DNA from: an uncultured virus (IMG/VR IMGVR_UViG_3300043428_000060)
Taxonomy: Duplodnaviria; Heunggongvirae; Uroviricota; Caudoviricetes
Length of the DNA: 64,000 nucleotides
Strand: one strand, 5' to 3'
Virus record (IMG/VR): IMGVR_UViG_3300043428_000060
Below, in pieces: positions 79 through 63,477 of this stretch (within the stretch, counting starts at the first letter, position 1; the number at the start of each line of letters is the position of its first letter). The position numbers were made by a program, and so were the translations under genes. The notes beneath the pieces were generated by a model. It saw only the letters and a list, made by a program, of their open reading frames with translations. It made no database searches and was not told where the DNA came from.

Positions 79-134
79 AGAGATAGAGGGTTATACTTAT
101 AATACCTTTATTCCCTATAAATAATTAACAACCC

Positions 135-177
135 TTACAAAGCGAATACGAGCTCCGTATGATAATATAAATGTAAC
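135..177 (+). promoter_or_regulatory. class I (early) phage promoter motif
   Basis: TTACA-N8-ACG-N10-GATAAT-N5-TGTAAC; one of ten copies with identical spacing, all intergenic and nine directly upstream of an ORF. Confidence 0.85.
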
Positions 178-197
178 AAATAAACAAACATATTACA

Positions 198-398
198 ATG
201 AGTGAAATAATACCTTACGTTAACCCTAAACATCCCGAACGTACTTATTACAAAGCGAGTTACGGTAATGAAACGTATCACCATACCGACAAGGCTATTG
301 TCAAAAAGTGGTTGATCGAGCAAATACTCGTAACACCATACAAAGAAGAAAAACAGCGTATAACTAACAGAGCGGCGGAATCGTTCTATAAAAAGTAA
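198..398 (+). CDS. hypothetical early protein
   Basis: ORF directly behind a class I motif, A-rich leader. Confidence 0.75.
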   Translation: MSEIIPYVNPKHPERTYYKASYGNETYHHTDKAIVKKWLIEQILVTPYKEEKQRITNRAAESFYKK

Positions 399-402
399 AA
401 TT

Positions 403-594
403 ATGAAGAAATTAAATGGATTTGAGAGCTTTTTAGCTACACAAGGTTTAGAATTATTAAGAGAACAAATGGTAAGTGACATCACCGAGTATGTACGACA
501 AGGTAAAACACCTATATTCACTACGGGATTCGTTGACGACTCTATCGATGCTCTAATCAAGAAACTTGAAACATTAACTTTAAAACAAAAGTAA
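403..594 (+). CDS. hypothetical early protein
   Basis: Tightly packed ORF. Confidence 0.75.
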   Translation: MKKLNGFESFLATQGLELLREQMVSDITEYVRQGKTPIFTTGFVDDSIDALIKKLETLTLKQK

Positions 595-595
595 T

Positions 596-638
596 CTACA
601 ATCCAAACACGATCGATAAACGATAATATTAATGTAAC
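596..638 (+). promoter_or_regulatory. class I (early) phage promoter motif
   Basis: CTACA-N8-ACG-N10-GATAAT-N5-TGTAAC. Confidence 0.85.
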
Positions 639-655
639 AAATAAAAATATATACT

Positions 656-925
656 ATGAACAAAGTACTAAAATTAACTAAGCTTTATGAATGCAGCGAC
701 CACGACCGTTATATCTATGTTGAATATACAAACGGTAAATTAACCTCAATAAATTATTGGCAAGGTATTAGCGATGAAGTTGATCAATCCACAATGAATA
801 ACGATCCGGATTTACTTAAATTCTACAATGCTATACACGATGCGTTGTACCACATGAGCGAAAATGAAGTCGATCAATTCAACTACGCAATCGATATGCA
901 CTTCGAATACAAAGACAATTATTAA
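656..925 (+). CDS. hypothetical early protein
   Basis: ORF behind a class I motif. Confidence 0.8.
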   Translation: MNKVLKLTKLYECSDHDRYIYVEYTNGKLTSINYWQGISDEVDQSTMNNDPDLLKFYNAIHDALYHMSENEVDQFNYAIDMHFEYKDNY

Positions 926-943
926 TTAATAAACTTATATACA

Positions 944-1165
944 ATGGAAAACTTACTAGACAAACTAAATTTACTAAGCAAACAATATGATATGTCAAAA
1001 TTCTATTGTATAACCTTATGGCTGGGTACGGATCAAATATATTTACAAGGGTATTATGCGGACGTTAACTTTGAAATCGCTAAAGATCTTGAAATAAAAC
1101 TTGAGCTTGAAGGTAGTATGCTACACGGTGAAAACAAATTTTATAAAATAACTTTAACAACATAA
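944..1165 (+). CDS. hypothetical early protein
   Basis: ORF with A-rich leader. Confidence 0.75.
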   Translation: MENLLDKLNLLSKQYDMSKFYCITLWLGTDQIYLQGYYADVNFEIAKDLEIKLELEGSMLHGENKFYKITLTT

Positions 1166-1167
1166 TC

Positions 1168-1245
1168 ATGAAAGCATTACTTAAATTATTATACAAAGAA
1201 TTACAAGAAGCTGGGAAAGCAGCGGCTTATGCAATGAGACATTAG
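1168..1245 (+). CDS. small hypothetical peptide (25 aa)
   Basis: MKALLKLLYKELQEAGKAAAYAMRH fills the gap between the previous stop and the next promoter; below the ORF-track cutoff. Confidence 0.55.
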   Translation: MKALLKLLYKELQEAGKAAAYAMRH

Positions 1246-1257
1246 CGATATAAGTAT

Positions 1258-1300
1258 CTACAAAACAAACACGATCACTTATTGATAATATAAATGTAAC
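1258..1300 (+). promoter_or_regulatory. class I (early) phage promoter motif
   Basis: CTACA-N8-ACG-N10-GATAAT-N5-TGTAAC. Confidence 0.85.
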
Positions 1301-1314
1301 TAAATAACAATACT

Positions 1315-1464
1315 ATGGAAGAAGCAATTAAAGATACCGAAAGATTTTCTGAATGGATGAAGAATACCGTAAAAAGTATACACTATGCAAACACTAATCG
1401 AATGATTATTGCATACGATAAAGTATTCCAAAACAACTTACGTTTAACTATAAAATCTAAATAA
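1315..1464 (+). CDS. small hypothetical early protein (49 aa)
   Basis: MEEAIKDTERFSEWMKN...; manual translation, directly behind a class I motif. Confidence 0.65.
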   Translation: MEEAIKDTERFSEWMKNTVKSIHYANTNRMIIAYDKVFQNNLRLTIKSK

Positions 1465-1465
1465 T

Positions 1466-1681
1466 ATGAATATAAGCGAAATAAAATACCGAGCACAATG
1501 TAAAGGCTACTCTAAAGTATTATCATTACAAAGTGACTTTCAACGAGCGGAACGTGATCTAAAACTAGGCTTAACCGGCGGTGTAAGTATCGAAGAGATC
1601 GAAGCAATACGTGATGGCATTGCAACCGAAATTACAGTATGGAATTATATATTTAAACTTATAGAAAATGACAACAAGTAA
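1466..1681 (+). CDS. hypothetical early protein
   Basis: Packed ORF. Confidence 0.75.
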   Translation: MNISEIKYRAQCKGYSKVLSLQSDFQRAERDLKLGLTGGVSIEEIEAIRDGIATEITVWNYIFKLIENDNK

Positions 1682-1907
1682 AGAACAAACATTACCTAAA
1701 TGGTTTACCGGTATGCTATACACTGACGGCGGCACAGTTAGCAATCCGTTCTCTGGCGAAAGCTACGATCTAACCCCCGCTGAGTTATCTATGTACGACT
1801 TTATTATGGGTTGTTCAATGACTGGTAGAATGCAGAATGAAATGATGAAAGGCTTAATGTGGTTTAGAAAAGCTAACCCGCAAGCATATATGGTATTATT
1901 AGACTAA
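1668..1907 (+). CDS. hypothetical early protein
   Basis: Packed, overlapping ORF. Confidence 0.8.
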   Translation: MTTSKEQTLPKWFTGMLYTDGGTVSNPFSGESYDLTPAELSMYDFIMGCSMTGRMQNEMMKGLMWFRKANPQAYMVLLD

Positions 1908-1917
1908 AATATAAATT

Positions 1918-2154
1918 ATGAGCAACGAAACATACAACGGTTACACTAATTACGCTACATGGCGAATTAACTTAGAAATATTAGATGGCATGGAATTCAC
2001 TGAAGCTATTGATGCAAGCGATCTAGAAGATATAGTAACAAACATTGTATTCAATGACGATCAATCCGGACTTATAGCCGATTATGCAGCAGCGTTTATT
2101 AGCGAAGTAAACTTCTATGAGTTAGCGAATATGATAAATGACGGATTAGAATAG
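1918..2154 (+). CDS. hypothetical acidic phage protein (YNGYTNYATW N-terminus)
   Basis: ORF; the N-terminal motif recurs in phage early proteins. Confidence 0.75.
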   Translation: MSNETYNGYTNYATWRINLEILDGMEFTEAIDASDLEDIVTNIVFNDDQSGLIADYAAAFISEVNFYELANMINDGLE

Positions 2155-2156
2155 AC

Positions 2157-2199
2157 TTACAAACCAAACACGACAACACAACGATAATATAAATGTAAC
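2157..2199 (+). promoter_or_regulatory. class I (early) phage promoter motif
   Basis: TTACA-N8-ACG-N10-GATAAT-N5-TGTAAC. Confidence 0.85.
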
Positions 2200-2215
2200 A
2201 AATAAAAAATTATAT

Positions 2216-2491
2216 ATGAAACAAATTAAAACAGTAGAACAATTCCGTTACTTTGTAGGATTTAACGGTAGATTATTCAGCGTAACATTCAGAAAAGCTG
2301 ACGGATCAATCAGAAAAATGGTAGCAAGATTAGATGTAAAGTCTTATTTAACTGGTGGCGGCGCTAAATATGATGCTAAAGAGCGTAACAATATTGTAGT
2401 ATTTTCTATGCGAGATAAAGCCTACCGTACTATCAAGATCGATAACTTATTGAGTGTCAAGGCTAACGGAGAATTAATTGAAAACAACTAA
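2216..2491 (+). CDS. SH3/Sm-like (WYL-like) beta-barrel protein
   Basis: FSVTFRKADGSIRKM...VFSMRDKAYRTI pattern. Confidence 0.6.
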   Translation: MKQIKTVEQFRYFVGFNGRLFSVTFRKADGSIRKMVARLDVKSYLTGGGAKYDAKERNNIVVFSMRDKAYRTIKIDNLLSVKANGELIENN

Positions 2492-2501
2492 ATAAAATAT
2501 T

Positions 2502-3113
2502 ATGGCAATCTCATTGCTCACGCAAAATTCGAAACTAAAAAAGACAAGCAAATTAACAGGTCATAGAGTATTTAATTTCGGCATTCCTGCATACAAATCA
2601 GCATCGGGTAAGTTAACCTGCCCGTTCGCTGGGGAATGTGTCAAATTTTGTTATGCTCAAAAAGGCGCATACTCATGGAGTAATGTAAAGCCAGCGTTTG
2701 AAAAACGTTATGAGCTAACTAAGACTGACGATTTTGTTAATGAGATGAATAAAGAAATAGCTAAAAAGAAACCTGATTATGTACGTGTACACGACAGTGG
2801 CGATTACTACTCCAAAGCATATCTTGATAAGTGGATCGAGATTGCTATACACAACCCGCATGTCAGGTTTTATAGCTACACAAACAGTGTTGAAATGTTA
2901 AAATCCGCTGATCTACCTGACAACTACGATATTATCTTTAGTGACTCTGGCAAACAAAAAGACAAAATTAATACTAAAGTTGATCGCCATACTAGAATTT
3001 TTGCTACCTTAGCCGAGATGACATTAGCTGGCTATGTAAACGCTATGGAAACTGATCTTAATGCAACTAAGTGGTTCAATAAAACAAATAGAGTAGGATT
3101 AATCTTTCATTAA
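2502..3113 (+). CDS. GP88-like, radical-SAM-related Fe-S protein
   Basis: TCPFAGECVKFCYA cysteine triad, VRVHDSGDYY and FYSYT motifs. Confidence 0.7.
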   Translation: MAISLLTQNSKLKKTSKLTGHRVFNFGIPAYKSASGKLTCPFAGECVKFCYAQKGAYSWSNVKPAFEKRYELTKTDDFVNEMNKEIAKKKPDYVRVHDSGDYYSKAYLDKWIEIAIHNPHVRFYSYTNSVEMLKSADLPDNYDIIFSDSGKQKDKINTKVDRHTRIFATLAEMTLAGYVNAMETDLNATKWFNKTNRVGLIFH

Positions 3114-3118
3114 TACTT

Positions 3119-3161
3119 TTACAGTCCTAATACGAATAACAATTGATAATATAAATGTAAC
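3119..3161 (+). promoter_or_regulatory. class I (early) phage promoter motif
   Basis: TTACA-N8-ACG-N10-GATAAT-N5-TGTAAC. Confidence 0.85.
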
Positions 3162-3178
3162 ATATAAAAATATAAATT

Positions 3179-3592
3179 ATGAATCCATTAGATCAAATTT
3201 TTGAAATTACCCAATTAAGCGTTATAAATTCTGCATCAAGTATTTTTACTAAAGACGATGTGCACAAGCTACTTACTCAACTACAATCTAACATTAATAA
3301 GCATGCAATTGATGAAAGTAAATTACCTCAACAACCAATATCAACACCTAATATATTAGCTAGCGACTTTGCTAAATTTACTTCGGCTGTTCGTAACAAA
3401 TTATCTTATTACTTAGAAAGTTCAGACCTTGTTGATTATGATTCTGCAGAATTTGAAATTGAATACAACAATCAGCTTGTACTTAATCATGTTAATGTAG
3501 ATCTTGATAGCTGGACAGAAGAGTTTGATGATTATATGCTAGATAACTTTACAGAAATATTTGGTGACAATAGTATTATTGCTGAACAGTAA
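3179..3592 (+). CDS. hypothetical acidic protein
   Basis: ORF behind a class I motif; strongly acidic C-terminal half. Confidence 0.8.
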   Translation: MNPLDQIFEITQLSVINSASSIFTKDDVHKLLTQLQSNINKHAIDESKLPQQPISTPNILASDFAKFTSAVRNKLSYYLESSDLVDYDSAEFEIEYNNQLVLNHVNVDLDSWTEEFDDYMLDNFTEIFGDNSIIAEQ

Positions 3593-3599
3593 TACTTAA

Positions 3600-3673
3600 G
3601 GACTTATAGCTCAGCCGGTTAGAGCAGGACACTCATAATGTCAAGGTCGTAGGTTCGAATCCTACTAGGTCCA
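3600..3673 (+). tRNA. tRNA with CAT anticodon (probably Ile2/lysidine type, otherwise elongator Met); CCA not encoded
   Basis: Acceptor GGACTTA/TAGGTCC, D arm GCTC..GAGC, anticodon loop CTCATAA, T arm GTAGG-TTCGAAT-CCTAC, discriminator A. Confidence 0.93.
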
Positions 3674-3693
3674 CAAATTTAAAACTTAACATT

Positions 3694-3978
3694 ATGTATT
3701 ACAAAAATTACGATTACAAAAAAGCGAAAGCAACTATCAAACAATACTTATCTGATCAAGGATTTGGACAGCTAATATCTGCATCACTTGGCATGGAAGA
3801 AGATTGGTTTTGGACTGCTGAAACTATATGGGAAGACGGCAAGTTTACAAATAAATTATCTAAAAACACAAAGATTGCTGGTATTGATAGAAGTTATTTC
3901 GCAACACCTATATTAGAATTAGAAACTGAAGACAATTTTAAATTAAAAATACCGTGTTATTTTGAAACTGAGGAATAG
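3694..3978 (+). CDS. hypothetical protein
   Basis: ORF with A-rich leader. Confidence 0.75.
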   Translation: MYYKNYDYKKAKATIKQYLSDQGFGQLISASLGMEEDWFWTAETIWEDGKFTNKLSKNTKIAGIDRSYFATPILELETEDNFKLKIPCYFETEE

Positions 3979-3979
3979 C

Positions 3980-4022
3980 TTACAAACCAAACACGAATAA
4001 CAATTGATAATATTAATATAAA
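3980..4022 (+). promoter_or_regulatory. class I (early) phage promoter motif, variant 3' end
   Basis: TTACA-N8-ACG-N10-GATAAT-N5-TATAAA. Confidence 0.8.
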
Positions 4023-4031
4023 AAACAAACT

Positions 4032-9927: not shown

Positions 9928-10695
9928 ATGAAAAGTTATAATATAGATAATTATTTGAGGTATAAAGAAGATCGAGATACTTCAATAGAAAAATTTCCGG
10001 AACAAGAGTTCTCTGCTAGTTGTTCACGAGACGAGTTAATTATTAAGTTCTTACCATTTGTTGAAAATATTGCAAGAAAGTTCTCCACTAGCCAGCAAGC
10101 GTCGGGAGTACTTGATATTACGGATTTAATTCAATATGGTTCAATAGGTTTAATACAAGCTGTTGATAAAATTGAATGGGACACAGTGAATCAAAGCGAG
10201 CATAAAGAAAGTACGCTTAAGTCATTTCTATCTAAAAGAATTAAAGGATCGATTAGAAGAGCTATAGATATTAACAGAGGCTCAATTAAGATCCCAGAGC
10301 ACAAGCTAAATGAAATAAGAAAAGATAATAGCAAGGACCACACGTTGGTTGCAATGTTTTTCAATTCAATATTCCTAAGCATCGATGAACAAATTGACGA
10401 TGATGATGAAGAGAATATGTTGTATCAAATACCGGATCAATCCGAAGTATACAATATAGGTTTAATGAATGCTTACTTAACTAGCTTGCTTAAGAAACAT
10501 TTAGACGATAAAGAGTTTGAAGTATTAAGATTAAGTTATGGTTTAGACTGTGACAAACATTCAGCTAATGAGATTGCTGACATATTAAATATAGACGGAG
10601 CTAGTGCTTATGTTAGAATATCTGAAATAAAGAAGCAAGCAATAAAAAAATTAGTTGATAATGTAGATGCGAATCAAGTTATTGATTATCTTTGA
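9928..10695 (+). CDS. phage RNA polymerase sigma-70 family factor
   Basis: Region 2: LPFVENIARKF...DLIQYGSIGLIQAVDK...RIKGSIRRAID; region 4: LDDKEFEVLRLSYGL...EIADILNI...RISEIKKQAIKKL. Confidence 0.93.
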   Translation: MKSYNIDNYLRYKEDRDTSIEKFPEQEFSASCSRDELIIKFLPFVENIARKFSTSQQASGVLDITDLIQYGSIGLIQAVDKIEWDTVNQSEHKESTLKSFLSKRIKGSIRRAIDINRGSIKIPEHKLNEIRKDNSKDHTLVAMFFNSIFLSIDEQIDDDDEENMLYQIPDQSEVYNIGLMNAYLTSLLKKHLDDKEFEVLRLSYGLDCDKHSANEIADILNIDGASAYVRISEIKKQAIKKLVDNVDANQVIDYL

Positions 10696-10721: not shown

Positions 10722-10746
10722 GTAAAAAAGTTATATTATACGTAAT
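10722..10746 (+). promoter_or_regulatory. class II (middle/late) phage promoter motif
   Basis: GTAA-N15-CGTAAT heading the replication operon. Confidence 0.75.
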
Positions 10747-10774
10747 TATATATTTATAACTAAACTATATAACT

Positions 10775-13148: not shown

Positions 13149-13168
13149 AACAAATTAAATTTTTTCCT

Positions 13169-19103: not shown

Positions 19104-19116
19104 AAAAACACGTAAT
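19092..19116 (+). promoter_or_regulatory. class II (middle/late) phage promoter motif
   Basis: ATAA-N15-CGTAAT upstream of an endonuclease VII gene. Confidence 0.65.
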
Positions 19117-19141
19117 ATTAATAATATATAAAATTGTTAAT

Positions 19142-19645
19142 ATGAAAAAGTGTACAAAGTGCAACGCAGAGAAACCTTCTAGCGAGTATTATAAACATAG
19201 AGGAGGCTTATATTCTTCATGCAAAGAATGTAAGAAAAAAATACAAGCATTAAGATATGAGCCAAATCCTATTGTTTTAAAAAGTAATAAAATACCAAAT
19301 AGCCAAACTTGTTCAAAGTGTAATATTGAAAAATCAATTAAAAATTTTAGATATAGAAAAGATAGAAATCACTTTTATACAATATGTATAGATTGTCAAA
19401 GACTATCCCATATATGTAAAACTTATCTTGTCAATATTGATAAAGCGGTCGAATTGCATAATACAAATAAATGTAGTATATGTGATGTTGCTGTAATAGG
19501 TAAGAATCAATGCGTAGATCATTCACATAAAACAGGAATAGTTAGAGGAATATTATGCAGTAATTGCAATAGGGGATTAGGTTATTTTAATGATAATATA
19601 TATAAATTAGCAAATGCTATAAAATACTTAAATAATAATGAGTGA
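19142..19645 (+). CDS. endonuclease VII-family (HNH) putative homing endonuclease
   Basis: Two N-terminal CxxC zinc-finger repeats; [23 protein letters not shown]. Confidence 0.9.
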
Positions 19646-22115: not shown

Positions 22116-25100
22116 TTAACCCATTTTTCTTCTTCTTCTTTTTTCTCTTCGATCAGCAACGGCTTGTCTTTTTAATTTGATACGCTCTGCTAGCGGTAAA
22201 CTTCTAATAGAATCTTTTGTTCTTTCTCTAGTCTCTTTAGCTTTTTCAACGCCCTCAATTTTTCTTTTAGCTTTTGCTTCTTCTCTGATTTTTTTATCAC
22301 CAGCTGAATCTTCAATACCAGCGCTATAAGGTGACCAACCAAGACCAACCATTATTCTTTGCATTGCAGTATTCTGAGAATTCAAAGCTTCGGATGCATT
22401 ATTTATTTTAGTAACCAAACGATCCATAGGTACATTGGTTGTTGCTTCAACAACTTTACCGGCTACTCCGTATGACGGACTTAAATTAACTCTGCCATCT
22501 TGCGTTACATCCCAGCCTCTTGCCTCAATTAAATCTTTATCAAATTTAGTTTGCTGAAGTCCACTGTAAAGTTTTCTAAGCTTAGATCCAATTGGCGGTG
22601 AAAGGTTAGCTGCTTCAAGTACAACTTTGGCATAATCAGCTTTGAACTTTTTATCTCTTTCGTCCAAATATTTTTTAGCCATATTTTTTACAGTAGCAAC
22701 AATTCCTCCAACAAAACCTGTACCTCTTAATATAGTGTCAATTACACCATCAGCAACATCAAACAATTTGTCATCTAATTTTTTCTCTTTATCAGATTTC
22801 TCTTTGTCTTCATCGTCATCACCAAAAGCTACAGCAAATAATCCTTGTTGTAATACAGCAAACATTGTATTTTGTATTGCTACATAATAAGCAATCTTAG
22901 CAAAGTTTGTTTTAGCATCACCCCTACCATTTTTAAGATCAAGCACTGCTTTTTTAACAATACGAGATTGTTGCATCGCGGTATTCTGGAATGTTAACAA
23001 TAATCTACCAGCAGGACTAGCTTGTTGTTTAGATATATCTCTTGGATCACCAGATTGTTGTGTTTCATCAGATACTTTTGTAAAGTCATCCCAAGCTGCT
23101 TCTTCAGCCTCTTGCTCTGTCATTCCCTCTTTCAAATAACTCTTTATTCTATTTCTATAGAAAGGAGCACCTCCTGAAGCAATAGCAAAACTATCTGCCA
23201 TTTGCGTTGGTGTATAACCTATCTTCAATAAATAAGATAATATAGCACCAACTTTATTCTTACTACCTTCAGCAGCATTAGCAATCTCAGCAGCAGCAAC
23301 GTCTTCTTTTAAACCGCCACGTCTTTCCTTCATTTTGTCTGAATTCCAGATAGTAGCAAAATCTTCCCAATATTGCTTTTGATTAGCAAATGCTTTAGCA
23401 GCAGCATAAGGATTATTGTCCCTTAAGTTTAAGAAATTGACTGCTCCAATTAACTGTAACGCAGCGGATCTTACGTTTAAGAACATGATTGCTCCAGTGG
23501 ATCCAGATACCCAATTAGCCCAAGCGCTAGTCTCTTTGTCTTTTCCAAAGCTTTTGTTTTTACCAGTTATCATTCTGTATAAAACATCTTCTAAGGCTTC
23601 TCTAACATCTGTACCATATACAGCTTCAACTTTGTTTATATTAGGACCAACTAATTTACCATTTTCGAATTTACCAAACATCTCTTCAGCATTGGCAATA
23701 AATTCAGATAAGAATTTCTTTCTACCTTCGCCTTCTGTTAAGTTATGTAAATCTGTGATAATTGTATTAGCATCCCAATATTGTTCTGGTTTAATCCAAC
23801 CTCTACCTTGTCTTCCTGTTACAATTAAACTATCTTTAAAAGCTTTTAATTCTGGATCTGAATTAACAAGAGTAGTTAGTTTATTAGAATCTCGTTGTGA
23901 TAGTCCTGGAATATCTACGCCTTCTTCATTCCACATTGCAACACGAATTGCTTGATCGTAAGTAAAGTCTCCATCTGGAGTTCTTTTTTCAATCTTCTTA
24001 GCTACATCTGGGAATTCGTTTAATAATTGCTTATACTCTTTTTTAATAGATTGCCTTGCAGCATCCATTAAATCATTTCCATTAGCATAAGGTTTTAACA
24101 ATGTATCAGCAAAAAATTTCTTTTGCTCTTCTCCTTTTGCTCCTTTGCCTATAAAGTTATAAAGTAACAATTCAAAATCAGCTGCTGAAGCAGGCACATA
24201 AAAATCAAATTTGTTTTTACCAATACCTCTTCTTCTAGCAACAATATCTGAAAAGCTTTTATAGTCTTCAACTCCTTTATTCTCTTCTATTATTTTATTA
24301 AACTTAGGTGATATTGTTTTACTAAACTTAATAGAATCATTAACAAATTCTTCAGGATTGTCTATTAAATTATAATCAGATTTTTGATCCCAATTATTAC
24401 CTAATTGAAAAAACAATCTTTCAATTATTCTCCTATTCTTACCCGATGCAACAGAAGTTATTCTGCTATACACGTACATATTGCCGTTGATCAAAGGCAC
24501 TTTAGCTAATTCGCCAGTATTACTGCCCTCATAAGTAAATGAGCCATTCCCTTGTATATGAATAATATCTTTACCAACATTTATTTGAGCCAATGTTTTT
24601 GGAGTTATAACCATACTGGGCCCAGTTTTTTCTCCTTTAACATTATTCCAAACTTCATTGGATACAATTAATGAATTGCCGTCTTTGCTTAAATTATTGC
24701 TTTTTAAATATTCTAATGCTTTTTGGCGTGACTCATTATCCTTCATTTTGGATTTCATTTCGGTATCACCGTCAAATCCTTTTGTAAATATTATTTCATC
24801 ACCAAGCAAATTAGAGTTTGATGTGCTTCCATGAGGAGCAGTCTTATCTGCTTTTAATTCAACTATTACATTACGACCATCTTTACCAACTCTATATACT
24901 AAATCTGGATTTCTGCTATTAAATTTATCAGGCGCAGCCTCATTTAAAATAAAATCAGGATTATTTTTAGAAAACTTCCTTAATTTATTAAATGCTTCCG
25001 CTTCAAATTTAACACCTGCATTTGATTCCCATATTCTTTTATATTCATCAAGCAAATTACTTACACGGCGTATCCATTTTTTTCTAAAATCAGTATAATA

Positions 25101-28100
25101 TCTTTGATCTTTATCATCAAGAGAATTTTTAAAGTCAACTAATTCTTTAGAATTAAAATCCCAATTATTTTCTTTTAATAAGAATAACATTGAATTAGTT
25201 ACCGCTGATTTAGAAAATTTAACATTACCTCTTTCAACTTGATTAGCAAAAGCGGTAGTCAATACGTCATCAATTTCTACACCTAATCTTTCTTGGTTTG
25301 TTATAAATGCATCGAATATAGGGCCTTGGTTTTCAAAATCATCTAATACAATATCAAAAGAAGCCTCTTCTGCAATTGCTTTAGCTAATGATTCTTTTCT
25401 ACCTCTTATAGGATTGCCAGATGGTTCTAGGACATTACTTAAAAAGTCTTCATTAGAAACATTGTTTGCAACATTAGGTAATCTTCTAACAAGCTCAGCT
25501 CCTGAAGTTCTACCTGCATTATCAGTTGAAACAGATTCTCTATCTATTTTCTTACCAACCCAATCAGGATAATTAGTCCACTTACCGTCAATTTGTTTTT
25601 GAATAGCTTGCGGTATACCTCCTTTGCCATCTAATCCCATTAACCATGTTGTGGTCATGTTTTCAAGAATATATTTCTTATTCTTTAATAACCAATTTTT
25701 AAGTTGATTATCTTTTTTACCACCCATTGCGGTTTTAACGTCAATATCAACTTGCTTGCCAATTTCATCTCTAATTTCAGCAATTAATGGCGTAACAGTT
25801 CTATTTATAGATACAGGTGCGTCAATTTTAGATTTCAACGTTCTAACAACGCTTAATATCTTTTTATTAATTGTTTCAAGAGCTTCTTTGCTAAAAACTT
25901 TTGATTCTAATGCGTTTGCATACTTTGGTTTTTCTTTTACCTCAGAAACAGTTTCTTCAGCCATTAAAGCTTTTTCTTCTGTAACATCTTTACTAAATTC
26001 TTTACCAAGTAATCTTTTTGAAGTAGCAATTGCTCGTACTGGTAAATACTTATTAATATAAGCAGCCAATGGAACTCCAGATTCAGGATTGTATTTTGTT
26101 ATTAAATCTAAAATACCACCTACACCTGTTTCAATCTCATCTGTTAATAGTTCTCTATCAAAATCAGGGGCGTCTCTACGTTTATCTACTATTTTTTTAG
26201 TAATAGGTTTAAATAGATCTATAATATCCTGAGCTCCTTCTTTACCCTTTGTATCATATATTTTTTGAACTTTATCAGAAGCAACAGAAGATTTGTTTTC
26301 TTTTATTATTTCTTTTACTTCATCTTCCTCAGTTAAAATTTCTTTTTTAACTACAGGTTGCTCTGTTTTTAATTCAGATTCTTTTTTAAGAGCTGTTTTT
26401 ATTTTATTTTCGATGCTTTGTTTTTTAGGCAAGTATTCCTCCTCAGGCATGTCCCCATAACCCTCGTCATATTCTTCTTCTAAATCCGCAAGCTCTTGTT
26501 TAAATATTTCTGATTGTGTCTTAGACATTTTAGTAACACCAGATATATTTTCTCCCGCTTTTAATAAAGACTCGGCTCTTCCAGAAACTTTACCTTTATT
26601 TACAGTTTTAGCATACTCTTTAACAAAATTATAAATATCTCTACCATCTTCAAATTCAATGTTTTTAAATCCTTGTTTTACAAATATAGGTTTTAAAACA
26701 TTTTTCCATAATCCAACTAAAGTTTCCTTTACATTATCAGACCATTTTATATCGCCGTTTCTTAATAACTCAAAATATTGTGTTATATATTCATCAGGTG
26801 CATTCTCTAGTTCTTTAGCGGTATAAGCAAGCATTCTTTCATCAAGCTTTGCTCTTTCTGCTTTACTTAATACATTTAAAAAACTATCTTTTAATTCTAC
26901 TTTTTTTACCGGATCTGAAAATTCAGATTTAAGAATATTATGTAACAATTCATGAGAAGCTACATTCAACGCTTTTACTTCAGCAGCTCTTTGTTTATTT
27001 ATAAGTATTTGACCATTAGGCAAAACAAATCCATCAGTTTTAGTTATATCTTCCGATGCTTTATTATTTTCTGCCGCCCATTTATCATAAGCTGATTGAG
27101 CATCCTCAGCTGTTTCAAATACTTCAAATGATTTTCCTTCCCCTAAAGGATTTTTATAAGATTTTGCTCCTTCTTTATCAACAACACTAGTTAATGCACT
27201 CACTTCTTCTTCGATTTTTTGTTTAGAAGCTTTAGTGGTTATTTCAGAAATTTTAGCATTTATAGCTTTAACTTCTTCATTTTGGAATGATGTTAATGTT
27301 GGATCATCTACTGCTTTTATAGTTGAGTTTAATTTATCTCTTTGCTTTAATAAATTAATAACTTCAATATTATCAACTTCGGACATATTAAGGCTTTTTA
27401 CCTTATTAGCAGCATGATATGTAAATGCAAATTCTTTTTTAATGTCTTCCCCTTGTTCTGGAGTAATCTTATCTGAATTAATATCAAAATCAATTTGATC
27501 ATTCAGTATTTTATATGAATTTGGTATTGTTGCAATATTAATTTGCTCTTTTGTAACGGGAGTTATTGGATTAAAAACCTCAGGTAAATTATTTACATTT
27601 GTATTTTTTAATTCCTTATTAACTTTATAGGTCGTTAAACCTTTTTTGAATCCTTGTATACCTTTTTGCAAATTTACAGGAGATCCCCATACGCTACCTC
27701 CACCAACACCGGCTATGAAAGAATCTGTTACATTTTCAAATGCAGGCTTTTTGGATATTAAATTTTGAGTTATAGTTGTAGCAACCTCTTCTAATCCTTC
27801 ACCAACCATTGCAGTTGGAGCGCCGTATTTTTTTAGCGCAGTTTCATAAGCAGAAACAAGCCCGTCTTTGAATATTTTAGACCCAACCTCAGTCCCTTCT
27901 TTCTTTACAATATCCTTATAAACTTTACCAAGACTACCTTCCCCAATTGCTGAAAATACACTTTCCGCTGCTGCCATTCCAAAACCGGTAACAACATTTT
28001 CTATTTCAGATTGATTAGGATTTTCTTCCGCAATCTTTCTTGATTCTGGACCAGCCATTAAACCAGTAGATGCAGCTGCTAATTTACCAAGACCCATATT

Positions 28101-29150
28101 TGCACCGCCAATCATCATAGCAATGCTCACAGGCGCACTCTCAGCAATTCCAGTGCCTAATAATTTAAAAGCATCACTCCAATTACCATTAGATATATTT
28201 TCAGAAATGCTAGCAGAGTCATAGTTAGCACTGTCATATATATTATTATTTTTTTGTATTTTCTTTTGCTCCTCAACAAAATGATCCATTAATGGATTTG
28301 AAGTTCCTGTTAATTTTTTTAATTTTTCAGGCGTGGCTTCTAAATCTTTGTTGTCTGTTATAGAAGCTATTATATTTTGAGGTAATGCAAATACACGATA
28401 AACTGTTTCTGGAATAGAAGCAAAAGATTCTCCAACATAATTTGCGCCGCCGGCAATACCATTTATAAATCTATCTACATAAGATGCTTGCTCAATACCT
28501 TTCTTTTTTTCAGCAGCCTTAGACAATATTTCTTGTGATTTTAATTCTATATCTTTTGGAGATAAAGAATATGATTCACCTATTTTTATATTACTTTGTA
28601 GTAAGTCCGCCGCTTTATTATCTAACGATAATTTCTGTTCCGGTGTTAATTTAGAATAATTAAAATTATCAAAAGTATCAAACACTTCATTTGCTACTTT
28701 TTCTTCTGCTTTTTTCTTTTTAACTCCAGTTGCTTCAATATTTTTTTCGCCTTTTGTATAAAATCCTTCCGTTTTATCGGTAGCCATGTCTTTAGCAAAT
28801 TTCTTTGCATTAAATTTGACTTCTTTTTTTGGTTGAATTTTAGCTGCTTCAAGACTATTTTTTGTAATATTTAAAGGATCAAATATATTTACTTTACCAA
28901 AAGGATTATCTTGTGATACCGATGAAGATTTTACCGATTTGGATGCCGTATTTTTTGGTCCCGCTACAGTTGCATCCTTTACCGCAACGGGTTTTTTCTT
29001 TCCCGGTCCTTCTGCAGGTGTTTCTTTGCTATTTTTAGACAGTCCATTTTTTTCAATGATGTCTTCAAATGTAGTATCATTTTCTTCAGCCGCTTGATTT
29101 ACTTCGTCTATTGTATATAAATGTCCGTCTTTGCTAATATAATCTGCCAT
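22116..29150 (-). CDS. giant internal virion/ejection protein; polyvalent (zincin peptidase, sigma-like domain, PD-(D/E)XK nuclease)
   Basis: 2344 aa, last gene of the structural arm after the GNAT and two internal-protein genes; HELLH at aa 733, sigma region-2-like aa ~970-1048, PD..ELK motif at aa ~1380-1435. Confidence 0.8.
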   Translation of the reverse strand: MADYISKDGHLYTIDEVNQAAEENDTTFEDIIEKNGLSKNSKETPAEGPGKKKPVAVKDATVAGPKNTASKSVKSSSVSQDNPFGKVNIFDPLNITKNSLEAAKIQPKKEVKFNAKKFAKDMATDKTEGFYTKGEKNIEATGVKKKKAEEKVANEVFDTFDNFNYSKLTPEQKLSLDNKAADLLQSNIKIGESYSLSPKDIELKSQEILSKAAEKKKGIEQASYVDRFINGIAGGANYVGESFASIPETVYRVFALPQNIIASITDNKDLEATPEKLKKLTGTSNPLMDHFVEEQKKIQKNNNIYDSANYDSASISENISNGNWSDAFKLLGTGIAESAPVSIAMMIGGANMGLGKLAAASTGLMAGPESRKIAEENPNQSEIENVVTGFGMAAAESVFSAIGEGSLGKVYKDIVKKEGTEVGSKIFKDGLVSAYETALKKYGAPTAMVGEGLEEVATTITQNLISKKPAFENVTDSFIAGVGGGSVWGSPVNLQKGIQGFKKGLTTYKVNKELKNTNVNNLPEVFNPITPVTKEQINIATIPNSYKILNDQIDFDINSDKITPEQGEDIKKEFAFTYHAANKVKSLNMSEVDNIEVINLLKQRDKLNSTIKAVDDPTLTSFQNEEVKAINAKISEITTKASKQKIEEEVSALTSVVDKEGAKSYKNPLGEGKSFEVFETAEDAQSAYDKWAAENNKASEDITKTDGFVLPNGQILINKQRAAEVKALNVASHELLHNILKSEFSDPVKKVELKDSFLNVLSKAERAKLDERMLAYTAKELENAPDEYITQYFELLRNGDIKWSDNVKETLVGLWKNVLKPIFVKQGFKNIEFEDGRDIYNFVKEYAKTVNKGKVSGRAESLLKAGENISGVTKMSKTQSEIFKQELADLEEEYDEGYGDMPEEEYLPKKQSIENKIKTALKKESELKTEQPVVKKEILTEEDEVKEIIKENKSSVASDKVQKIYDTKGKEGAQDIIDLFKPITKKIVDKRRDAPDFDRELLTDEIETGVGGILDLITKYNPESGVPLAAYINKYLPVRAIATSKRLLGKEFSKDVTEEKALMAEETVSEVKEKPKYANALESKVFSKEALETINKKILSVVRTLKSKIDAPVSINRTVTPLIAEIRDEIGKQVDIDVKTAMGGKKDNQLKNWLLKNKKYILENMTTTWLMGLDGKGGIPQAIQKQIDGKWTNYPDWVGKKIDRESVSTDNAGRTSGAELVRRLPNVANNVSNEDFLSNVLEPSGNPIRGRKESLAKAIAEEASFDIVLDDFENQGPIFDAFITNQERLGVEIDDVLTTAFANQVERGNVKFSKSAVTNSMLFLLKENNWDFNSKELVDFKNSLDDKDQRYYTDFRKKWIRRVSNLLDEYKRIWESNAGVKFEAEAFNKLRKFSKNNPDFILNEAAPDKFNSRNPDLVYRVGKDGRNVIVELKADKTAPHGSTSNSNLLGDEIIFTKGFDGDTEMKSKMKDNESRQKALEYLKSNNLSKDGNSLIVSNEVWNNVKGEKTGPSMVITPKTLAQINVGKDIIHIQGNGSFTYEGSNTGELAKVPLINGNMYVYSRITSVASGKNRRIIERLFFQLGNNWDQKSDYNLIDNPEEFVNDSIKFSKTISPKFNKIIEENKGVEDYKSFSDIVARRRGIGKNKFDFYVPASAADFELLLYNFIGKGAKGEEQKKFFADTLLKPYANGNDLMDAARQSIKKEYKQLLNEFPDVAKKIEKRTPDGDFTYDQAIRVAMWNEEGVDIPGLSQRDSNKLTTLVNSDPELKAFKDSLIVTGRQGRGWIKPEQYWDANTIITDLHNLTEGEGRKKFLSEFIANAEEMFGKFENGKLVGPNINKVEAVYGTDVREALEDVLYRMITGKNKSFGKDKETSAWANWVSGSTGAIMFLNVRSAALQLIGAVNFLNLRDNNPYAAAKAFANQKQYWEDFATIWNSDKMKERRGGLKEDVAAAEIANAAEGSKNKVGAILSYLLKIGYTPTQMADSFAIASGGAPFYRNRIKSYLKEGMTEQEAEEAAWDDFTKVSDETQQSGDPRDISKQQASPAGRLLLTFQNTAMQQSRIVKKAVLDLKNGRGDAKTNFAKIAYYVAIQNTMFAVLQQGLFAVAFGDDDEDKEKSDKEKKLDDKLFDVADGVIDTILRGTGFVGGIVATVKNMAKKYLDERDKKFKADYAKVVLEAANLSPPIGSKLRKLYSGLQQTKFDKDLIEARGWDVTQDGRVNLSPSYGVAGKVVEATTNVPMDRLVTKINNASEALNSQNTAMQRIMVGLGWSPYSAGIEDSAGDKKIREEAKAKRKIEGVEKAKETRERTKDSIRSLPLAERIKLKRQAVADRREKRRRRKMG

Positions 29151-31803: not shown

Positions 31804-33273
31804 TTAGAATACTGAGTAATCAAAGTTACAAGATGCAGCAAATAATTCTTTAGCGCCACCAACATCTGTCGCATTGTCTAAAGACATATCAACAACAGCA
31901 AAATAACCTTTAATTCCTGATATTTCATTTCCAAAAGAAATTTCTTCTGGATTTGGCTCACTCTTATTCATAAGTACAGCCATATATTTATTTTCTTTTC
32001 TATCGAATCCAGCTCTATTTATTGGAGGATACAATGTACTTGGATACGAATTACCGTAATCATCATAAGCTCCCGTCATATAACTAAATACTGCAGGTGT
32101 AGTTAATACACCAACGACGTCTTGAGTGCTTATATAACCAGAGTTCAAATAATCAGGTCCGGTTAAATCCGATCTAAACGAATCAACTTGCCATCCATTT
32201 GCTCCTTCGTAATTTATTGTTTTAAATACTTTAACATTACTAGGCGCTTCGTTAAAAACAAATCTTATAGTAGAATTATATTGAACTCCGTAGAAATTAC
32301 CTCTTGTATTAGCGGCTTCATTATAGTGAACCCAAAGTCTACCTTTATTTAAAGTATAAAATTTACTTTTTAAACTTAATATTTGTGAAGGTATAAAAGA
32401 ATAAAAACTAGTAAAGCCATTAGCATCATCACTGAATCCTAATGTTTTATCTTGTTTGTATTGATCCGGTGTAGCGGCTGATGATTGTGTAGATAATACA
32501 TATTGTTTGTTATGTGTATCCCATCCTCCAATTACTTTCCCAGGACCATAAGTTGCGGTATCTATATTACTAAATTCATCTCTAAAGTAATCAGTCATAC
32601 CGTATTGTGATATTTCTGTTATACCGTCTTGAGATAATCTAAGAACCGCATTTCTATTTCTATCAGTAAAGTATTTTCTATACCCATAGACAGCAAAACT
32701 ACCAGGGTCTTGACTAATGCCATAAGTACCAGCGTAAGCTTGTGTTTGTCCAATTACAACATTAGATGATGTAACTGTACCCGCTCCTTCCGCTGAATAT
32801 ATTGCATCTTTATCTATCAATGCTCTGCTTACTTTATTCTCTTGAAATATAATTAAGTTAGTATCTTCAGCATATAATTTTTGAATTGAACCATTTGCTG
32901 GATCTAGTCCTTTAGTTATCTCTTCTCCAGAAGAAAATTGATTTGTATTATTAACACCTGTTCTTGAATTGAATAATCCAGAATATATTAAAGCACTTGA
33001 TCTAATAGCCGCGGTGTTTGTTGCGTCTACTATATATGCTTTAACACCAAAATCAACCGTTAGATTATTATACCCTCCTCTTATTCTAGCTTCTTCAATA
33101 AACCATTCTTTTGTAGTACTCGGAACAACAGTAGATATTGGATAACCAGTATTGTCACCATCTATAGTAGTAGGTATACCGAAAGATCCACCCCAAACAG
33201 GGGTGTTTCCTCCAGCGAATACTTTCTTTAATATGAATGTGTTAAAATATTTTACTTCTACAACTGCTGCCAT
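31804..33273 (-). CDS. tail/stabilisation (nozzle-like) protein, C-terminal part
   Basis: Beta-rich; GSIQKL, YGIS..P.SF, YFTD...VLRLSQDG motifs. Confidence 0.65.
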   Translation of the reverse strand: MAAVVEVKYFNTFILKKVFAGGNTPVWGGSFGIPTTIDGDNTGYPISTVVPSTTKEWFIEEARIRGGYNNLTVDFGVKAYIVDATNTAAIRSSALIYSGLFNSRTGVNNTNQFSSGEEITKGLDPANGSIQKLYAEDTNLIIFQENKVSRALIDKDAIYSAEGAGTVTSSNVVIGQTQAYAGTYGISQDPGSFAVYGYRKYFTDRNRNAVLRLSQDGITEISQYGMTDYFRDEFSNIDTATYGPGKVIGGWDTHNKQYVLSTQSSAATPDQYKQDKTLGFSDDANGFTSFYSFIPSQILSLKSKFYTLNKGRLWVHYNEAANTRGNFYGVQYNSTIRFVFNEAPSNVKVFKTINYEGANGWQVDSFRSDLTGPDYLNSGYISTQDVVGVLTTPAVFSYMTGAYDDYGNSYPSTLYPPINRAGFDRKENKYMAVLMNKSEPNPEEISFGNEISGIKGYFAVVDMSLDNATDVGGAKELFAASCNFDYSVF

Positions 33274-36300: not shown

Positions 36301-36476
36301 CTAAAATCAACGGCTAAACTATTACCTAATATATTTTGTAATGTTCCAACATCTGAAGCTTCTGACCTATTGACTTCAAGATTTAATGCGTAACGATATT
36401 CATTGTTAGGCATTAATCTATCGTCTATATCTTGGTTCATTTTAGAACTAAGAAAATTATTTTTAATTTCCGCCAT
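33321..36476 (-). CDS. tail/stabilisation (nozzle-like) protein with C-terminal Ig-like extension
   Basis: MNQDIDDRL..NEYRYALN, LFWTDNRNQPRKIN; beta-rich C-terminus. Confidence 0.7.
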   Translation of the reverse strand: MAEIKNNFLSSKMNQDIDDRLMPNNEYRYALNLEVNRSEASDVGTLQNILGNSLAVDFRSITGKSNLECIGVLPDESNNNIYVFLTDYNGTAYSTTAGNYIYVYNNLQPVSIANPKLLVSGAFLNFSTLYPIYGINLIENLLFWTDNRNQPRKINVINASNNSGYYTVEEQISVAKLSPLYAPQLYRESVVAPGEYETTMYDVVSPDLPDGTANPYYVADWPGDPAYLESRYARFSYRYKFEDGEYSIMAPFTQIAYIPKQDGFFLYEGPVAPGGEPVQDDETSAYRSTIVEFMENKVNDILLQIPLPCPANTMYSLYKIVELEILYKEADSIAVNAVDAIPTIPKTGSFWNTTGEIYSYDYPSKKPFKTLPNRDVIRVNDITPVKALSQEIVGNRVVYGNYQDKYTYPKYLDYNAGASEKFGFGFGASEGTSVVEYPNHSVKENRNYQIGVVLGDRFGRESGVILSDQLSSFDSSFGASSLYLPYTEPGAPAPYNWFGNSLKILFNQPIQPASPNPSTGWPGIYNGDKTSPNYNPLGWYSYKIVVKQTEQDYYNVYLPGVMAAYPNSTTLELGKTSHIVLLNDNINKIPRDLSEVGPAQKQFRSSVILFPRVNNNTLAYNNEQYYPGNEYAFANTIATSNSLFYPDGVSPTTPPAGFLNFYQINSDPLIARLSTPQELGVITSTNDVINLAVYETKPVESKLDIYWETSTSGLISELNTAIQSGSSASVDSMVGWSFTLSEADGPGTVVTTPFKFKDVLGADVTPTSVVLDSVLTGEASPTDVTSKFILERVGVTNTYIIKTAPAAYFYYGFNASTVNHYFFTIRATIGSPPVSNSFVQNGYLSNVNPTITNKPTTPFNMDIGDIDIYDFNGVNGSNPAGGLSTAGLTWSVTNADGSPTTIFTITSGGLLQDLSGLAEGTFNLKVTLTEASGNTDFVNITVIYPFRNSVTFTSWSSKCGTVSAIETTTGFITITGSDANFNAFATVNTGTVSITTDVIINGTSLNAFRNTIGTTTSGVLTLPAGTYPYFIEVDRVISGSGVGCGGINYIQ

Positions 36477-38548: not shown

Positions 38549-38565
38549 TATATTAATATTACGTA

Positions 38566-62268: not shown

Positions 62269-62625
62269 CTATTCGGTTAAAAATTATAATCTAATGACGT
62301 ATACTTATTATAACAAATTGAAAAAAAATATTGTAAAAAATTTTTTAGGGGTAGGTAAATTTTGATAAATGAGATATAGAGAAATAAAATTTAAAAAAAC
62401 CGGGTCCCTCTGGATGAATTGAATGAGATATAGAGAATTTGAGAGTTATAGCACTATTTTGAACAGCATACCCGAAAAGGGAAATCAGTTTTCATTTACC
62501 GGGTCCCCCGATTCTGTACAGGTTTACGGCATAGGTTTCGCCTTTCGGCTGTGTGATTGTGTTACAGTTAGCAATTCTAGTTGAGCTATTGTAGCTGCTG
62601 CAGCGCAGCGCGTAGCGTATAGCAT
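62269..62625. other. non-coding divergence region; candidate origin, genome end or packaging region
   Basis: No ORF; repeats AATGAGATATAGAGAA (62368, 62422) and ACCGGGTCCC (62399, 62498); long A/T tracts. Confidence 0.55.
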
Positions 62626-62668
62626 TTACAGTACCGACACGGATCGGTTGTGATAATATATATGTAAC
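62626..62668 (+). promoter_or_regulatory. class I (early) phage promoter motif
   Basis: TTACA-N8-ACG-N10-GATAAT-N5-TGTAAC. Confidence 0.85.
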
Positions 62669-62686
62669 AAGATAACAATATAAGAT

Positions 62687-62887
62687 ATGATACGAGTGAA
62701 TGATTTACCAAGACAAGTTAGACTGGATCTGATAGAGGAAGCTAGATGGCAGAATGGTGCTGAGTATGTGAATGATTGTGTACGTGACAATGTGTTCATT
62801 GCAGAGATCTGTAACTGGGCTAGGACGCGTCAGGGCTTCGATTACTGGCAATGGATAGATAAGGGTCTGTTCGCGGTTATGAACTGA
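62687..62887 (+). CDS. hypothetical early protein, first gene of the early arm
   Basis: Behind a class I motif; W..T.QGFDYW motif. Confidence 0.75.
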   Translation: MIRVNDLPRQVRLDLIEEARWQNGAEYVNDCVRDNVFIAEICNWARTRQGFDYWQWIDKGLFAVMN

Positions 62888-62950
62888 TACGTGGAGCGTG
62901 GTAACACGCGAAGCGTATAGCAAATGTATAGCATTTGCGTATAGCATTCC

Positions 62951-62993
62951 TTACAAACCTAGCACGAATGGTATTTGATAATATATATGTAAC
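62951..62993 (+). promoter_or_regulatory. class I (early) phage promoter motif
   Basis: TTACA-N8-ACG-N10-GATAAT-N5-TGTAAC. Confidence 0.85.
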
Positions 62994-63018
62994 AACAAAT
63001 AAATAATACTAAATGTTC

Positions 63019-63061
63019 TTACAATCCTAATACGAAGTTAATTTGATAATATTAATGTAAA
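63019..63061 (+). promoter_or_regulatory. class I (early) phage promoter motif, tandem copy
   Basis: TTACA-N8-ACG-N10-GATAAT-N5-TGTAAA. Confidence 0.85.
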
Positions 63062-63090
63062 TAAGTAACAAACAAATAAAAACAAATATC

Positions 63091-63414
63091 ATGACAAACA
63101 AAGAATTATTACAACAAGCAATTTCTAAATTAACTAAAGAAGAATTACAAGCAATCTATCCACCAATCGAAAGAGCTAACTTTGTGGTAAGAAAATCATG
63201 GCTAGGTCGTAACCAAGTTATAACCTTTGTCAACAAGAAGAATCAAAGAGTAACTTACAACCACGACGAAGTACTTAATGTAATGCTACCTAAACTATCC
63301 ATAATGCCATGTTGGATCAAACGTGAATATTGGTCACAATCAACCGATATGCCCGCTAATGTAAGAAGTCTAGCGACTATTGAAAATCTTAATGTAGAAG
63401 AGGTTAGCGAATAG
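63091..63414 (+). CDS. hypothetical early protein
   Basis: ORF behind two tandem class I motifs. Confidence 0.8.
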   Translation: MTNKELLQQAISKLTKEELQAIYPPIERANFVVRKSWLGRNQVITFVNKKNQRVTYNHDEVLNVMLPKLSIMPCWIKREYWSQSTDMPANVRSLATIENLNVEEVSE

Positions 63415-63420
63415 CCTCTT

Positions 63421-63463
63421 TTACAAAACGAATACGAAGTGTAATTGATAATATTAATGTAAC
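63421..63463 (+). promoter_or_regulatory. class I (early) phage promoter motif
   Basis: TTACA-N8-ACG-N10-GATAAT-N5-TGTAAC. Confidence 0.85.
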
Positions 63464-63477
63464 TAAATAAAACTAAT

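Follow-up and report, generated by a model that had tools for sequence, protein, structure and literature searches.

A probable sigma-2 domain, apparently exchanged as a cassette, in a giant candidate virion cargo protein of an uncultured phage

The window considered here is a stretch of 64,000 nucleotides from an uncultured virus of the Caudoviricetes (IMG/VR record IMGVR_UViG_3300043428_000060), approximately a single phage genome of about 64 kb. Its minus strand encodes a giant protein of 2,344 amino acids (aa) in the open reading frame (ORF) 22116..29150. An initial annotation had placed a sigma-factor-like module inside this protein and proposed that the phage injects it to redirect host core RNA polymerase to ten early promoters, called class I, after which a free-standing sigma factor (9928..10695) would serve a second promoter class. 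We find that residues 962-1050 of the giant protein (26001..26267, minus strand), called module A below, very probably form a diverged domain 2 of the sigma-70 family (sigma-2). Comparison of relatives indicates that module A is a swappable, fast-evolving cassette with at least four sequence classes. The class I promoter, on the other hand, is unchanged in all of 14 genomes, whichever class of module A they carry and whether or not the following domain, module B, is detected. Given this lack of covariation, module A does not appear to be what sets the class I sequence.

The range of the initial annotation, 25209..26531, corresponds to residues 874-1314. The peptide in which it recognized sigma-70 region 2 (beginning AQDIIDLFKP) is indeed present; it starts at residue 973, and its 79 residues occupy nt 25998-26234, slightly shifted from the approximate 26005-26240 given there. 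An alignment of residues 962-1320 with 33 relatives (34 sequences, called A1) was used to build an AlphaFold2 model, which shows two domains with a disordered linker between them (mean pLDDT 80, and 80-89 over model residues 1-80). The first domain, module A, is helical, with helices at aa 963-979, 981-989, 999-1008, 1013-1019 and 1028-1048. When the model was aligned to 48,161 PDB representatives, the first 29 of the best 50 structural matches were all chains of sigma factors or RNA polymerase initiation complexes, or a sigma-derived scaffold. Every one of them aligns within about the first 90 residues of the model (Z 5.9-8.8, rmsd 2.5-5.7, 72-97 residues aligned), and unrelated folds appear from rank 30 onward. 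Among the matches are 8x6g_H (Z 8.8, rmsd 2.5, 82 residues aligned), 6pmj_F (Z 8.4), 8b3z_A (Z 7.7) and 1sig_A (Z 7.7). The scaffold is engineered and covers the same stretch of the model as Taq sigma-A domain 2 does, and one of the 29 chains, 9n9q_C, is not identifiable from its title. Since Z values of 7-8 are common for helical models, the structural case rests on the identity of the matching chains.

Profile comparisons point the same way. The A1 profile, searched against 177,635 PDB sequences, gave 11 matches at E<=10, headed by 8b3z_A ('SigE N-terminal Domain', 82 aa; E=0.022), with sigma-K in third place (E=0.56). Both align at profile positions 10-90, in the register of regions 2.1-2.4; the remaining matches, amyloid precursor and FICD chains, fall on a different part of the profile. 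An hhalign comparison of A1 with the family of the phage's free sigma factor falls in the same register (E=0.0081), at a stated probability of only 4.9%. The likeness to sigma-70 region 2 that had been claimed for residues ~970-1048 is thus borne out by the fold search, the PDB profile search and the alignment to the free sigma family.

A number of results weigh against this assignment. The range of Z values from 6 to 9 is one that helical models often reach by chance, as the alignment tool itself warns. Single-sequence searches of the stretch against Pfam and PDB (phmmer) returned nothing relevant. The gathering score of Sigma70_r2 is not reached, and the whole protein as well as pieces of 117 and 436 aa gave no match to this family at E<=10. 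Among the 34 relatives, two match Sigma70_r2 weakly (best E 0.029, below the cut-off); they belong to module classes III and IV (see below), and with these two members Sigma70_r2 ties with DUF6092 as the family most often matched. A Foldseek search with the whole two-domain model gave nothing at E<=0.001, only spurious global alignments. As to polymerase binding, a co-fold of module A (A1 columns 1-95) with residues 220-350 of RpoC from Flavobacterium johnsoniae, a stand-in host, reached a score of 0.07 where the mark is 0.32, a result that counts neither way.

In the relatives, the stretch preceding module B is occupied by variants that share the pattern K(F/Y/W)(D/N)(P/G)...L..(Y/F)(I/L) and little else. 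Common to all of them are the K(F/Y/W)(D/N)(P/G) motif and, at the position resembling Y430, an aromatic residue. Classified by motif, 250 stored segments fall into class I (145), class II (20), class III (16), class IV (22), class V (15), class VI (2) and class VII (6), with 24 unassigned. Comparing the classes with hhalign links I to III (95%, E 2.5e-8) and to VI (97%), III to IV (98%, E 6.6e-14) and to VII (92%), and IV to VII (64%). Classes linked in this manner are, judged by their profiles, diverged homologues. Some of these comparisons count against a common sigma origin of the whole set: class II is linked only weakly (II to IV, 35%, E 4e-4) and class V to no other class, and class III, taken alone in an alignment of low diversity (Neff 1.5), matches no sigma factor in the PDB profile search and does not match the free sigma family. 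Classes II and V are nevertheless likely to be sigma-like as well.

The distribution of the classes looks like cassette exchange, since class II occurs in a close relative of the window (G002) and also in the distant genomes G014 and G015, and class V in G012, G013 and G016. This pattern would also suit a different function, in which the delivered domain is a sigma mimic that serves as a decoy or blocks a sensor, such as an anti-sigma-like protein or a defence protein monitoring sigma or RNA polymerase, and the cassette is swapped in the course of an arms race. The other inserts of the relatives are of a kind typical for conflict, for example a zeta-toxin-type kinase, and polyvalent proteins, a type of protein that the giant protein resembles in its build, are often aimed at host defences (PMC5512222). 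No defence context is seen, however, and from general knowledge the variation between the classes is no larger than that between groups of sigma factors sharing one site on the core enzyme. We consider such a role in conflict improbable.

The class I promoters provide the most direct comparison for the proposed function. As the initial annotation had stated, the window holds ten of them, all on the plus strand and all with both halves of the motif, whose consensus is tTACAr-N6-A(C/T)ACGA-N9/10-tt-GATAATATWAATGTAAc (42 bp). Four copies form the left part of the array (62585..63477) and six the right part (125..4031), where they stand before small plus-strand ORFs. The core alone has 23 matches with up to 3 mismatches in the whole window, ten of them with the upstream half in register. 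A single tRNA-Met (CAT) gene at 3600-3674 (plus strand) lies amid the early genes between two class I promoters.

In 15 related records searched with up to 2 mismatches, the class I core was found in 14, the exception being a fragment that is 38% complete. Two-part sites were counted in the window and in the early regions of 13 related IMG/VR genomes, and the class of module A in each genome was read from the loci and the class profiles. Both halves are present at 114 of the 145 core matches, and the two-part promoter (TACA..ACGA..GATAATATWAATGTAAC) is identical across the 14 genomes, of which six carry module class I, three class II, four class III and one class V. The six genomes with class I contribute 60 sites (ctTACAa....AAtACGAa....aatTGATAATAtaaATGTAAc), the class II genome G002 11 sites (cTTACAGTC.t.ATACGA..aa.aAaTGATAATATAaATGTAAc) and the four genomes with class III 36 sites (TACAaa.c.AAtACGA.....aAtTGATAATATaaaTGTAAc). 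The same blocks are found at two sites in G012, which carries class V, and at three and two sites in G015 and G014, respectively, where a class II module occurs without module B. The motif is thus kept even in distant genomes, in which the C-terminus of the giant protein is only 42-43% identical to that of the class V relative P0171.

The suggestion that module A reads the class I promoters, for which covariation of the two across related phages had been named as a check, is therefore not supported by these genomes: the module changes class and the promoter stays constant in 14 of 14. It is important to point out that the genomes were found by way of the giant protein, so that the presence of a module in all 14 is biased, and that the two-part motif was scanned in the early regions alone, except in the window, which was scanned whole; both points weaken the comparison. 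It should also be noted that the few residues shared by all classes might in principle suffice to read a -10-like element.

The second promoter class fares less well than the first. Copies of its motif, ACGTAAT with an AT run after it, precede middle and late genes at 10740-10753 and 19110-19123 (plus strand) and at 38551-38564 (minus strand), with looser copies near 4482, 52950 and 62100. The strict pattern ACGTAATW7 has three matches in the window where 0.59 are expected, and 2 of 100 shuffles reach three. Such copies are too few to define a promoter class. Part of the early region is present in 17 RNA runs, none of which contains half or more of its words. Relatives of the early region (compared with window positions 1-11000) occur in contigs of four freshwater metatranscriptome runs from four studies; these four contig sets gave no transcription starts, and contigs can neither show starts nor prove transcription.

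A more obvious candidate for reading the class I promoters is the free sigma factor of 255 aa (9928..10695, plus strand), which has regions 2 and 4. In Pfam it matches Sigma70_r2 with E=1.9e-5 and Sigma70_r4 with E=3.8e-4, the latter just below the cut-off, and it belongs to the sigma factor family PHROG_351 (E=5e-23). It has 8,000 relatives, and the 120 listed are 77-98% identical to it. The gene was found in four of five genomes searched (G002, G003, G010 and the distant G015; E 1e-116 to 1e-146), and is missing among these five from G014, whose record is 88% complete. It is the single free-standing sigma gene seen, in agreement with the initial annotation. The same holds for the claim that the genome lacks an RNA polymerase: no RNA polymerase family was matched by any of the 52 ORFs of at least 100 aa scanned with Pfam. 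By these comparisons the free sigma factor is as conserved as the class I promoter, and it would fit it better than module A, since a two-part promoter suits a two-domain sigma. A conserved two-domain sigma, that of the phage or that of the host, is the more likely reader of the class I promoters.

These data bear directly on the model from which the analysis started, in which an ejected minimal sigma consisting of sigma-2 only, much like gp55 of phage T4, fires the ten class I promoters together with host core polymerase at time zero, the free sigma factor then serving the second class. Several observations speak for it. Besides the sigma-2 fold itself, chain 7d7d_F from the T4 late (gp45-dependent) complex is matched at Z 7.1, and the class I core contains TATAAATG, which is close to the T4 late element TATAAATA. 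The class I motif and its spacing fit neither a standard -35/-10 promoter nor the Bacteroidota -33/-7 promoter. The scanned ORFs of the window hold no RNA polymerase family, delivery in few copies is compatible with a local starter, and the Y430-like aromatic as well as K(F/Y/W)(D/N)(P/G) are retained in every module class. On the other side, the module switches between classes I, II, III and V, which mostly have little or no similarity to each other, while both promoter halves are constant in the 14 genomes, and the free two-domain sigma is conserved to the same degree as the promoter. Furthermore, the upstream TACA and ACGA elements require a second reader, a role that module B could not fill in G014 and G015, since neither has a detected copy of it. 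The model therefore seems unlikely to us. The corresponding general statement, namely that an abundant, uncultured group of phages from fresh and marine waters, whose hosts are probably Bacteroidota, carries in its virions a sigma-2-only factor, part of a giant ejected protein, with which host core polymerase opens the TAnnAATG of class I at time zero, we consider doubtful.

Module A is followed by a disordered linker (aa 1051-1073; 25932..26000, minus strand; pLDDT <50 at model residues 90-112) in which the motifs DVTEEK and EKPKY are conserved; across 156 relatives its consensus is 'kDv.eekglmA.Et..e.kEKPkYknalE'. Module B (aa 1074-1309; 25224..25931, minus strand) is a conserved alpha/beta domain whose fold is unrecognised. 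Modelled separately from 70 sequences, it reached pLDDT 82 and pTM 0.77. Its best structural alignment (VIA) is to the winged-helix part of DpnI at Z 4.6, with no chain at Z>=5; Foldseek searches of PDB and BFVD gave nothing at E<=0.001, and no named relatives are found in the Atlas. Weak matches to winged-helix proteins (DpnI, NiaR, Z-alpha, Lrp-type) are to be taken as leads only. Sigma-3 and sigma-4 domains are not among the best 50 structural matches of module B, where Z does not exceed 4.6, and Pfam finds no Sigma70_r4 in the giant protein. These searches agree with the remark of the initial annotation that no clear region 4 follows the module, although they do not prove its absence. Its idea that a novel domain in this place reads the TACA/ACG elements, on the other hand, is not compatible with G014 and G015, where the promoter is kept and module B is undetected. 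The more distant giant proteins of G014, G015 and G016 (loci L193, L195 and L194; 2,566-3,217 aa) keep a class II or V module and the C-terminal block, with module B undetectable (best independent E 0.0065). Module A is therefore more widespread than module B.

Whether module A can act early in infection depends on the delivery of the giant protein, for which the evidence comes from gene order and protein build. Besides the giant ORF, which is its final gene, the minus-strand arm of the genome (62.0 to 22.1 kb) encodes TerL, the portal, a tail fibre, several 'virion structural protein' PHROGs, a crAss-type muzzle in two ORFs and GroEL/GroES-like proteins. TerL, the portal, the structural PHROGs and the split muzzle all lie upstream of the giant ORF on the same strand. 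The crAss_MUZ matches, at 33321-36476 and 31804-33273, are followed by three small ORFs and then by the giant ORF. Such a position behind the muzzle genes is the one that the genes for ejected cargo occupy in crassviruses. In phage PhiCrAss001, the muzzle gp44 is followed by the cargo proteins gp45 and gp46, and three more cargo proteins are annotated as RNA-polymerase-related (PMC10172136). Because its gene follows crAss-type muzzle genes and because it has a polyvalent build, we regard the giant protein as a candidate virion cargo; the gene order suggests this role. As to the muzzle genes themselves, the ORF at 33321-36476 (minus strand) matches the N-terminal end of crAss_MUZ and that at 31804-33273 (minus strand) the C-terminal end together with crAss_MUZ_C; both match PHROG_14478, a 'virion structural protein' family of 1,474 positions.

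A more sceptical view is that the giant protein is never delivered, or that the domain has no role with polymerase, the sigma-2 fold being an inherited helical scaffold with a use late in the cell or in assembly or packing. The gene does lie in the late arm, which implies that the protein is made late. The sequence signals for sigma are weak, and helical bundles can be reused for other purposes. The synteny with crassvirus cargo genes argues in the opposite direction, as do the presence of the module or a variant of it in 14 of 14 genomes despite its fast evolution and the fact that unrelated folds begin only at rank 30 of the structural matches. The sigma-2 fold is not known from proteins other than sigma factors. 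Taken together, we do not expect this view to be correct, and rate it as having a small chance.

The function that we favour, tentatively and with somewhat less confidence than an even chance would express, is that module A is a virion-delivered handle on host core RNA polymerase, present in few copies and acting locally at the site of DNA entry. A sigma-2 domain holds the beta-prime clamp helices and helps to open the DNA. The giant protein would be packaged into virions and leave them together with the DNA in the same way as the crassvirus cargo proteins, and it may be cut into its modules by its own candidate HExxH peptidase. Module A would then dock at the sigma-binding site of the host core enzyme, on the beta-prime clamp helices, and bring the polymerase to the entering genome, where it would start or assist the first transcription and possibly also DNA entry. 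It would have no role in setting the class I promoter sequence. A virion contains between a few and a few dozen copies of its ejected proteins, which makes titration or a stoichiometric block of the cell's polymerase unlikely and local action necessary; for the P22 ejection proteins, about 12, 12 and 30 molecules are injected (PMC8402733). One difficulty is that a module filling the sigma site would hinder the phage's own sigma factor on the same polymerase molecule.

Regarding the remainder of the giant protein, the whole sequence matches no Pfam family, DUF885 alone appearing at E=7, and no PHROG. Its family comprises 732 relatives at E<=0.001 among 7,996 scored candidates, nearly all of 2,000-3,200 aa; a relative is encoded on 181 IMG/VR stretches. 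Residues 950-1330 are matched by 462 cluster representatives, 252 of these at E<=1e-30. The 120 listed relatives all cover aa ~800-1300 and ~1650-2300 in the alignment, and 114 of them cover aa 1601-1650. The protein is accordingly composed of conserved blocks (aa 700-1300 and 1600-2300) separated by variable stretches, and of several unrelated domains that are swapped among relatives. No relative was found in cultured phages (tblastn and megablast against 50,697 phage records), and the combined modules A and B have none in 185,579 species genomes.

Upstream of module A there is a conserved HExxH region (26526..27053, minus strand), a candidate zincin-like peptidase, with HELLH at aa 733-737 (nt 26940-26954). 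Of 90 aligned relatives, at least 90% retain the H-E-x-L-H pattern, and one relative, P0244, matches the putative metallopeptidase family DUF6782 below the cut-off (E=0.0066); the PDB sequences gave no match to the region. Between it and module A lies a linker of low complexity, acidic and rich in lysine, as read from the translation (aa 876-961; 26268..26525, minus strand). Following module B there is a variable insert (aa 1320-1600; 24351..25193, minus strand), over which 50-58 of the 120 listed relatives align. Relatives have other domains here, between module B and the C-terminal block: P0162 an AAA_33/zeta-toxin-type kinase domain at its aa 1772-1913 (E=8e-14), and P0244 a DUF6934 at its aa 1287-1363 (E 1e-4). 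In a hydropathy scan, the conserved C-terminal block (aa 1601-2300; 22251..24350, minus strand) shows moderate hydrophobicity in two places, near aa 1886 and 2136. Its nearest named clusters in the Atlas hold LPD39 in 28% and LPD38 in 63% of their members, which is a lead only. A polymerase motif of the DxDGD type was also sought in the giant protein, and the sole DGD stretch (TPDGD, at about aa 1725) is not conserved. Neither Pfam nor PHROGs gives a match to a polymerase catalytic domain for the protein, whose model covers aa 962-1320 alone.

The plus-strand arm runs from about 62.3 kb through the end and start of the window to 22 kb, and contains small early-type ORFs, the sigma factor, and genes for recombination, replication and nucleotide metabolism. 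The thymidylate synthase ThyA offers a hint that the host belongs to the Bacteroidota: its four closest matches (56-72% identity) are on contigs of metagenome-assembled genomes of this group (Fluviicola, Bacteroidia), the next being at <=45%. These four contigs (L113-L116), one of which is 56 kb long, might be related phage sequence binned with its host. Three genes of the Endonuclease VII type on the plus strand (4529-5011, 10775-11173 and 19142-19645; E 2e-13 to 3e-17), one of them between the small and large ribonucleotide reductase genes, may be homing endonucleases. Before the primase-helicase gene, the intergenic region 13004-13168 has a direct repeat of AAGGTTATAGCCTTAAAA, a short palindrome, together with an AT-rich stretch, and may be an origin or a terminator pair. 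The chaperonin genes of the late arm are a GroEL-type gene at 51405-52949 (minus strand; Cpn60_TCP1, E 4e-54) and a GroES-like co-chaperonin gene at 47048-47659 (minus strand; PHROG_13932, E 8e-27).

Phages are known to bring into the cell either a whole RNA polymerase (N4, crAss-like and phiKZ-like phages) or an enzyme that modifies the polymerase (Alt of T4). They also encode free sigma factors, which are made after entry. A sigma-family domain within a probable virion cargo protein falls outside both of these classes, and full-text literature searches returned no report of one. If the phage did inject a minimal sigma, this would add a third immediate-early route to injected polymerases and injected polymerase-modifying enzymes. 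If module A binds core polymerase, as the reading that we favour has it, the system would constitute a testable case in which few injected molecules seize transcription locally, and a natural series of very different sigma-2 domains with one job. It would also warn against equating a sigma fold with the choice of promoters.

It is instructive to compare module A with the systems that it most resembles. With the sigma-2 domain of sigma-70 factors (PF04542) it shares the helical fold over about 82 residues at rmsd 2.5-3.5, the nearest rows being the S. aureus SigB complex (8x6g_H), sigma-28 (6pmj_F), pro-sigma-K (8vjl_B) and SigE (8b3z_A), as well as the motif register ..G..G(I/L)..(L/A)(I/V).K(F/Y)(D/N)P..G..(L/F)..Y... 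In contrast to sigma factors, which are free proteins of 150-600 aa, module A is embedded in a late protein of 2,344 aa. It also differs in lying below the Pfam threshold, in being followed by no recognised region 3 or 4, and in not keeping the Trp pair of region 2.3, as read from the alignment.

Gp55 of T4 has a sigma-2-type domain without region 4 and acts on an AT-rich -10-like element; it is synthesized in the infected cell as a free protein and depends on gp33 and the sliding clamp. The structural match to its complex covers 83 residues at Z 7.1 and rmsd 3.0 (7d7d, chain F, which we take from the title to be gp55). Module A, unlike the free gp55, is built into a protein that probably belongs to the virion.

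Polyvalent proteins (Iyer et al. 2017, PMC5512222) resemble the giant protein in their many unrelated domains, HExxH motif and variable effector inserts, and zincin-like processing and a 'jump-start' of transcription are among the themes described for them there. A sigma-family domain is not among the domains listed in the main text of that paper, in which the word 'sigma' occurs 0 times. Unlike gp50 of N4 and the RNA-polymerase cargo of crAss-like phages, the giant protein has no polymerase catalytic domain found with Pfam or PHROGs, and it would use the host polymerase instead. What it has in common with these proteins is its size, the position of its gene at the end of the virion genes, and the expectation that it enters the cell with the DNA and serves early transcription (PMC10172136).

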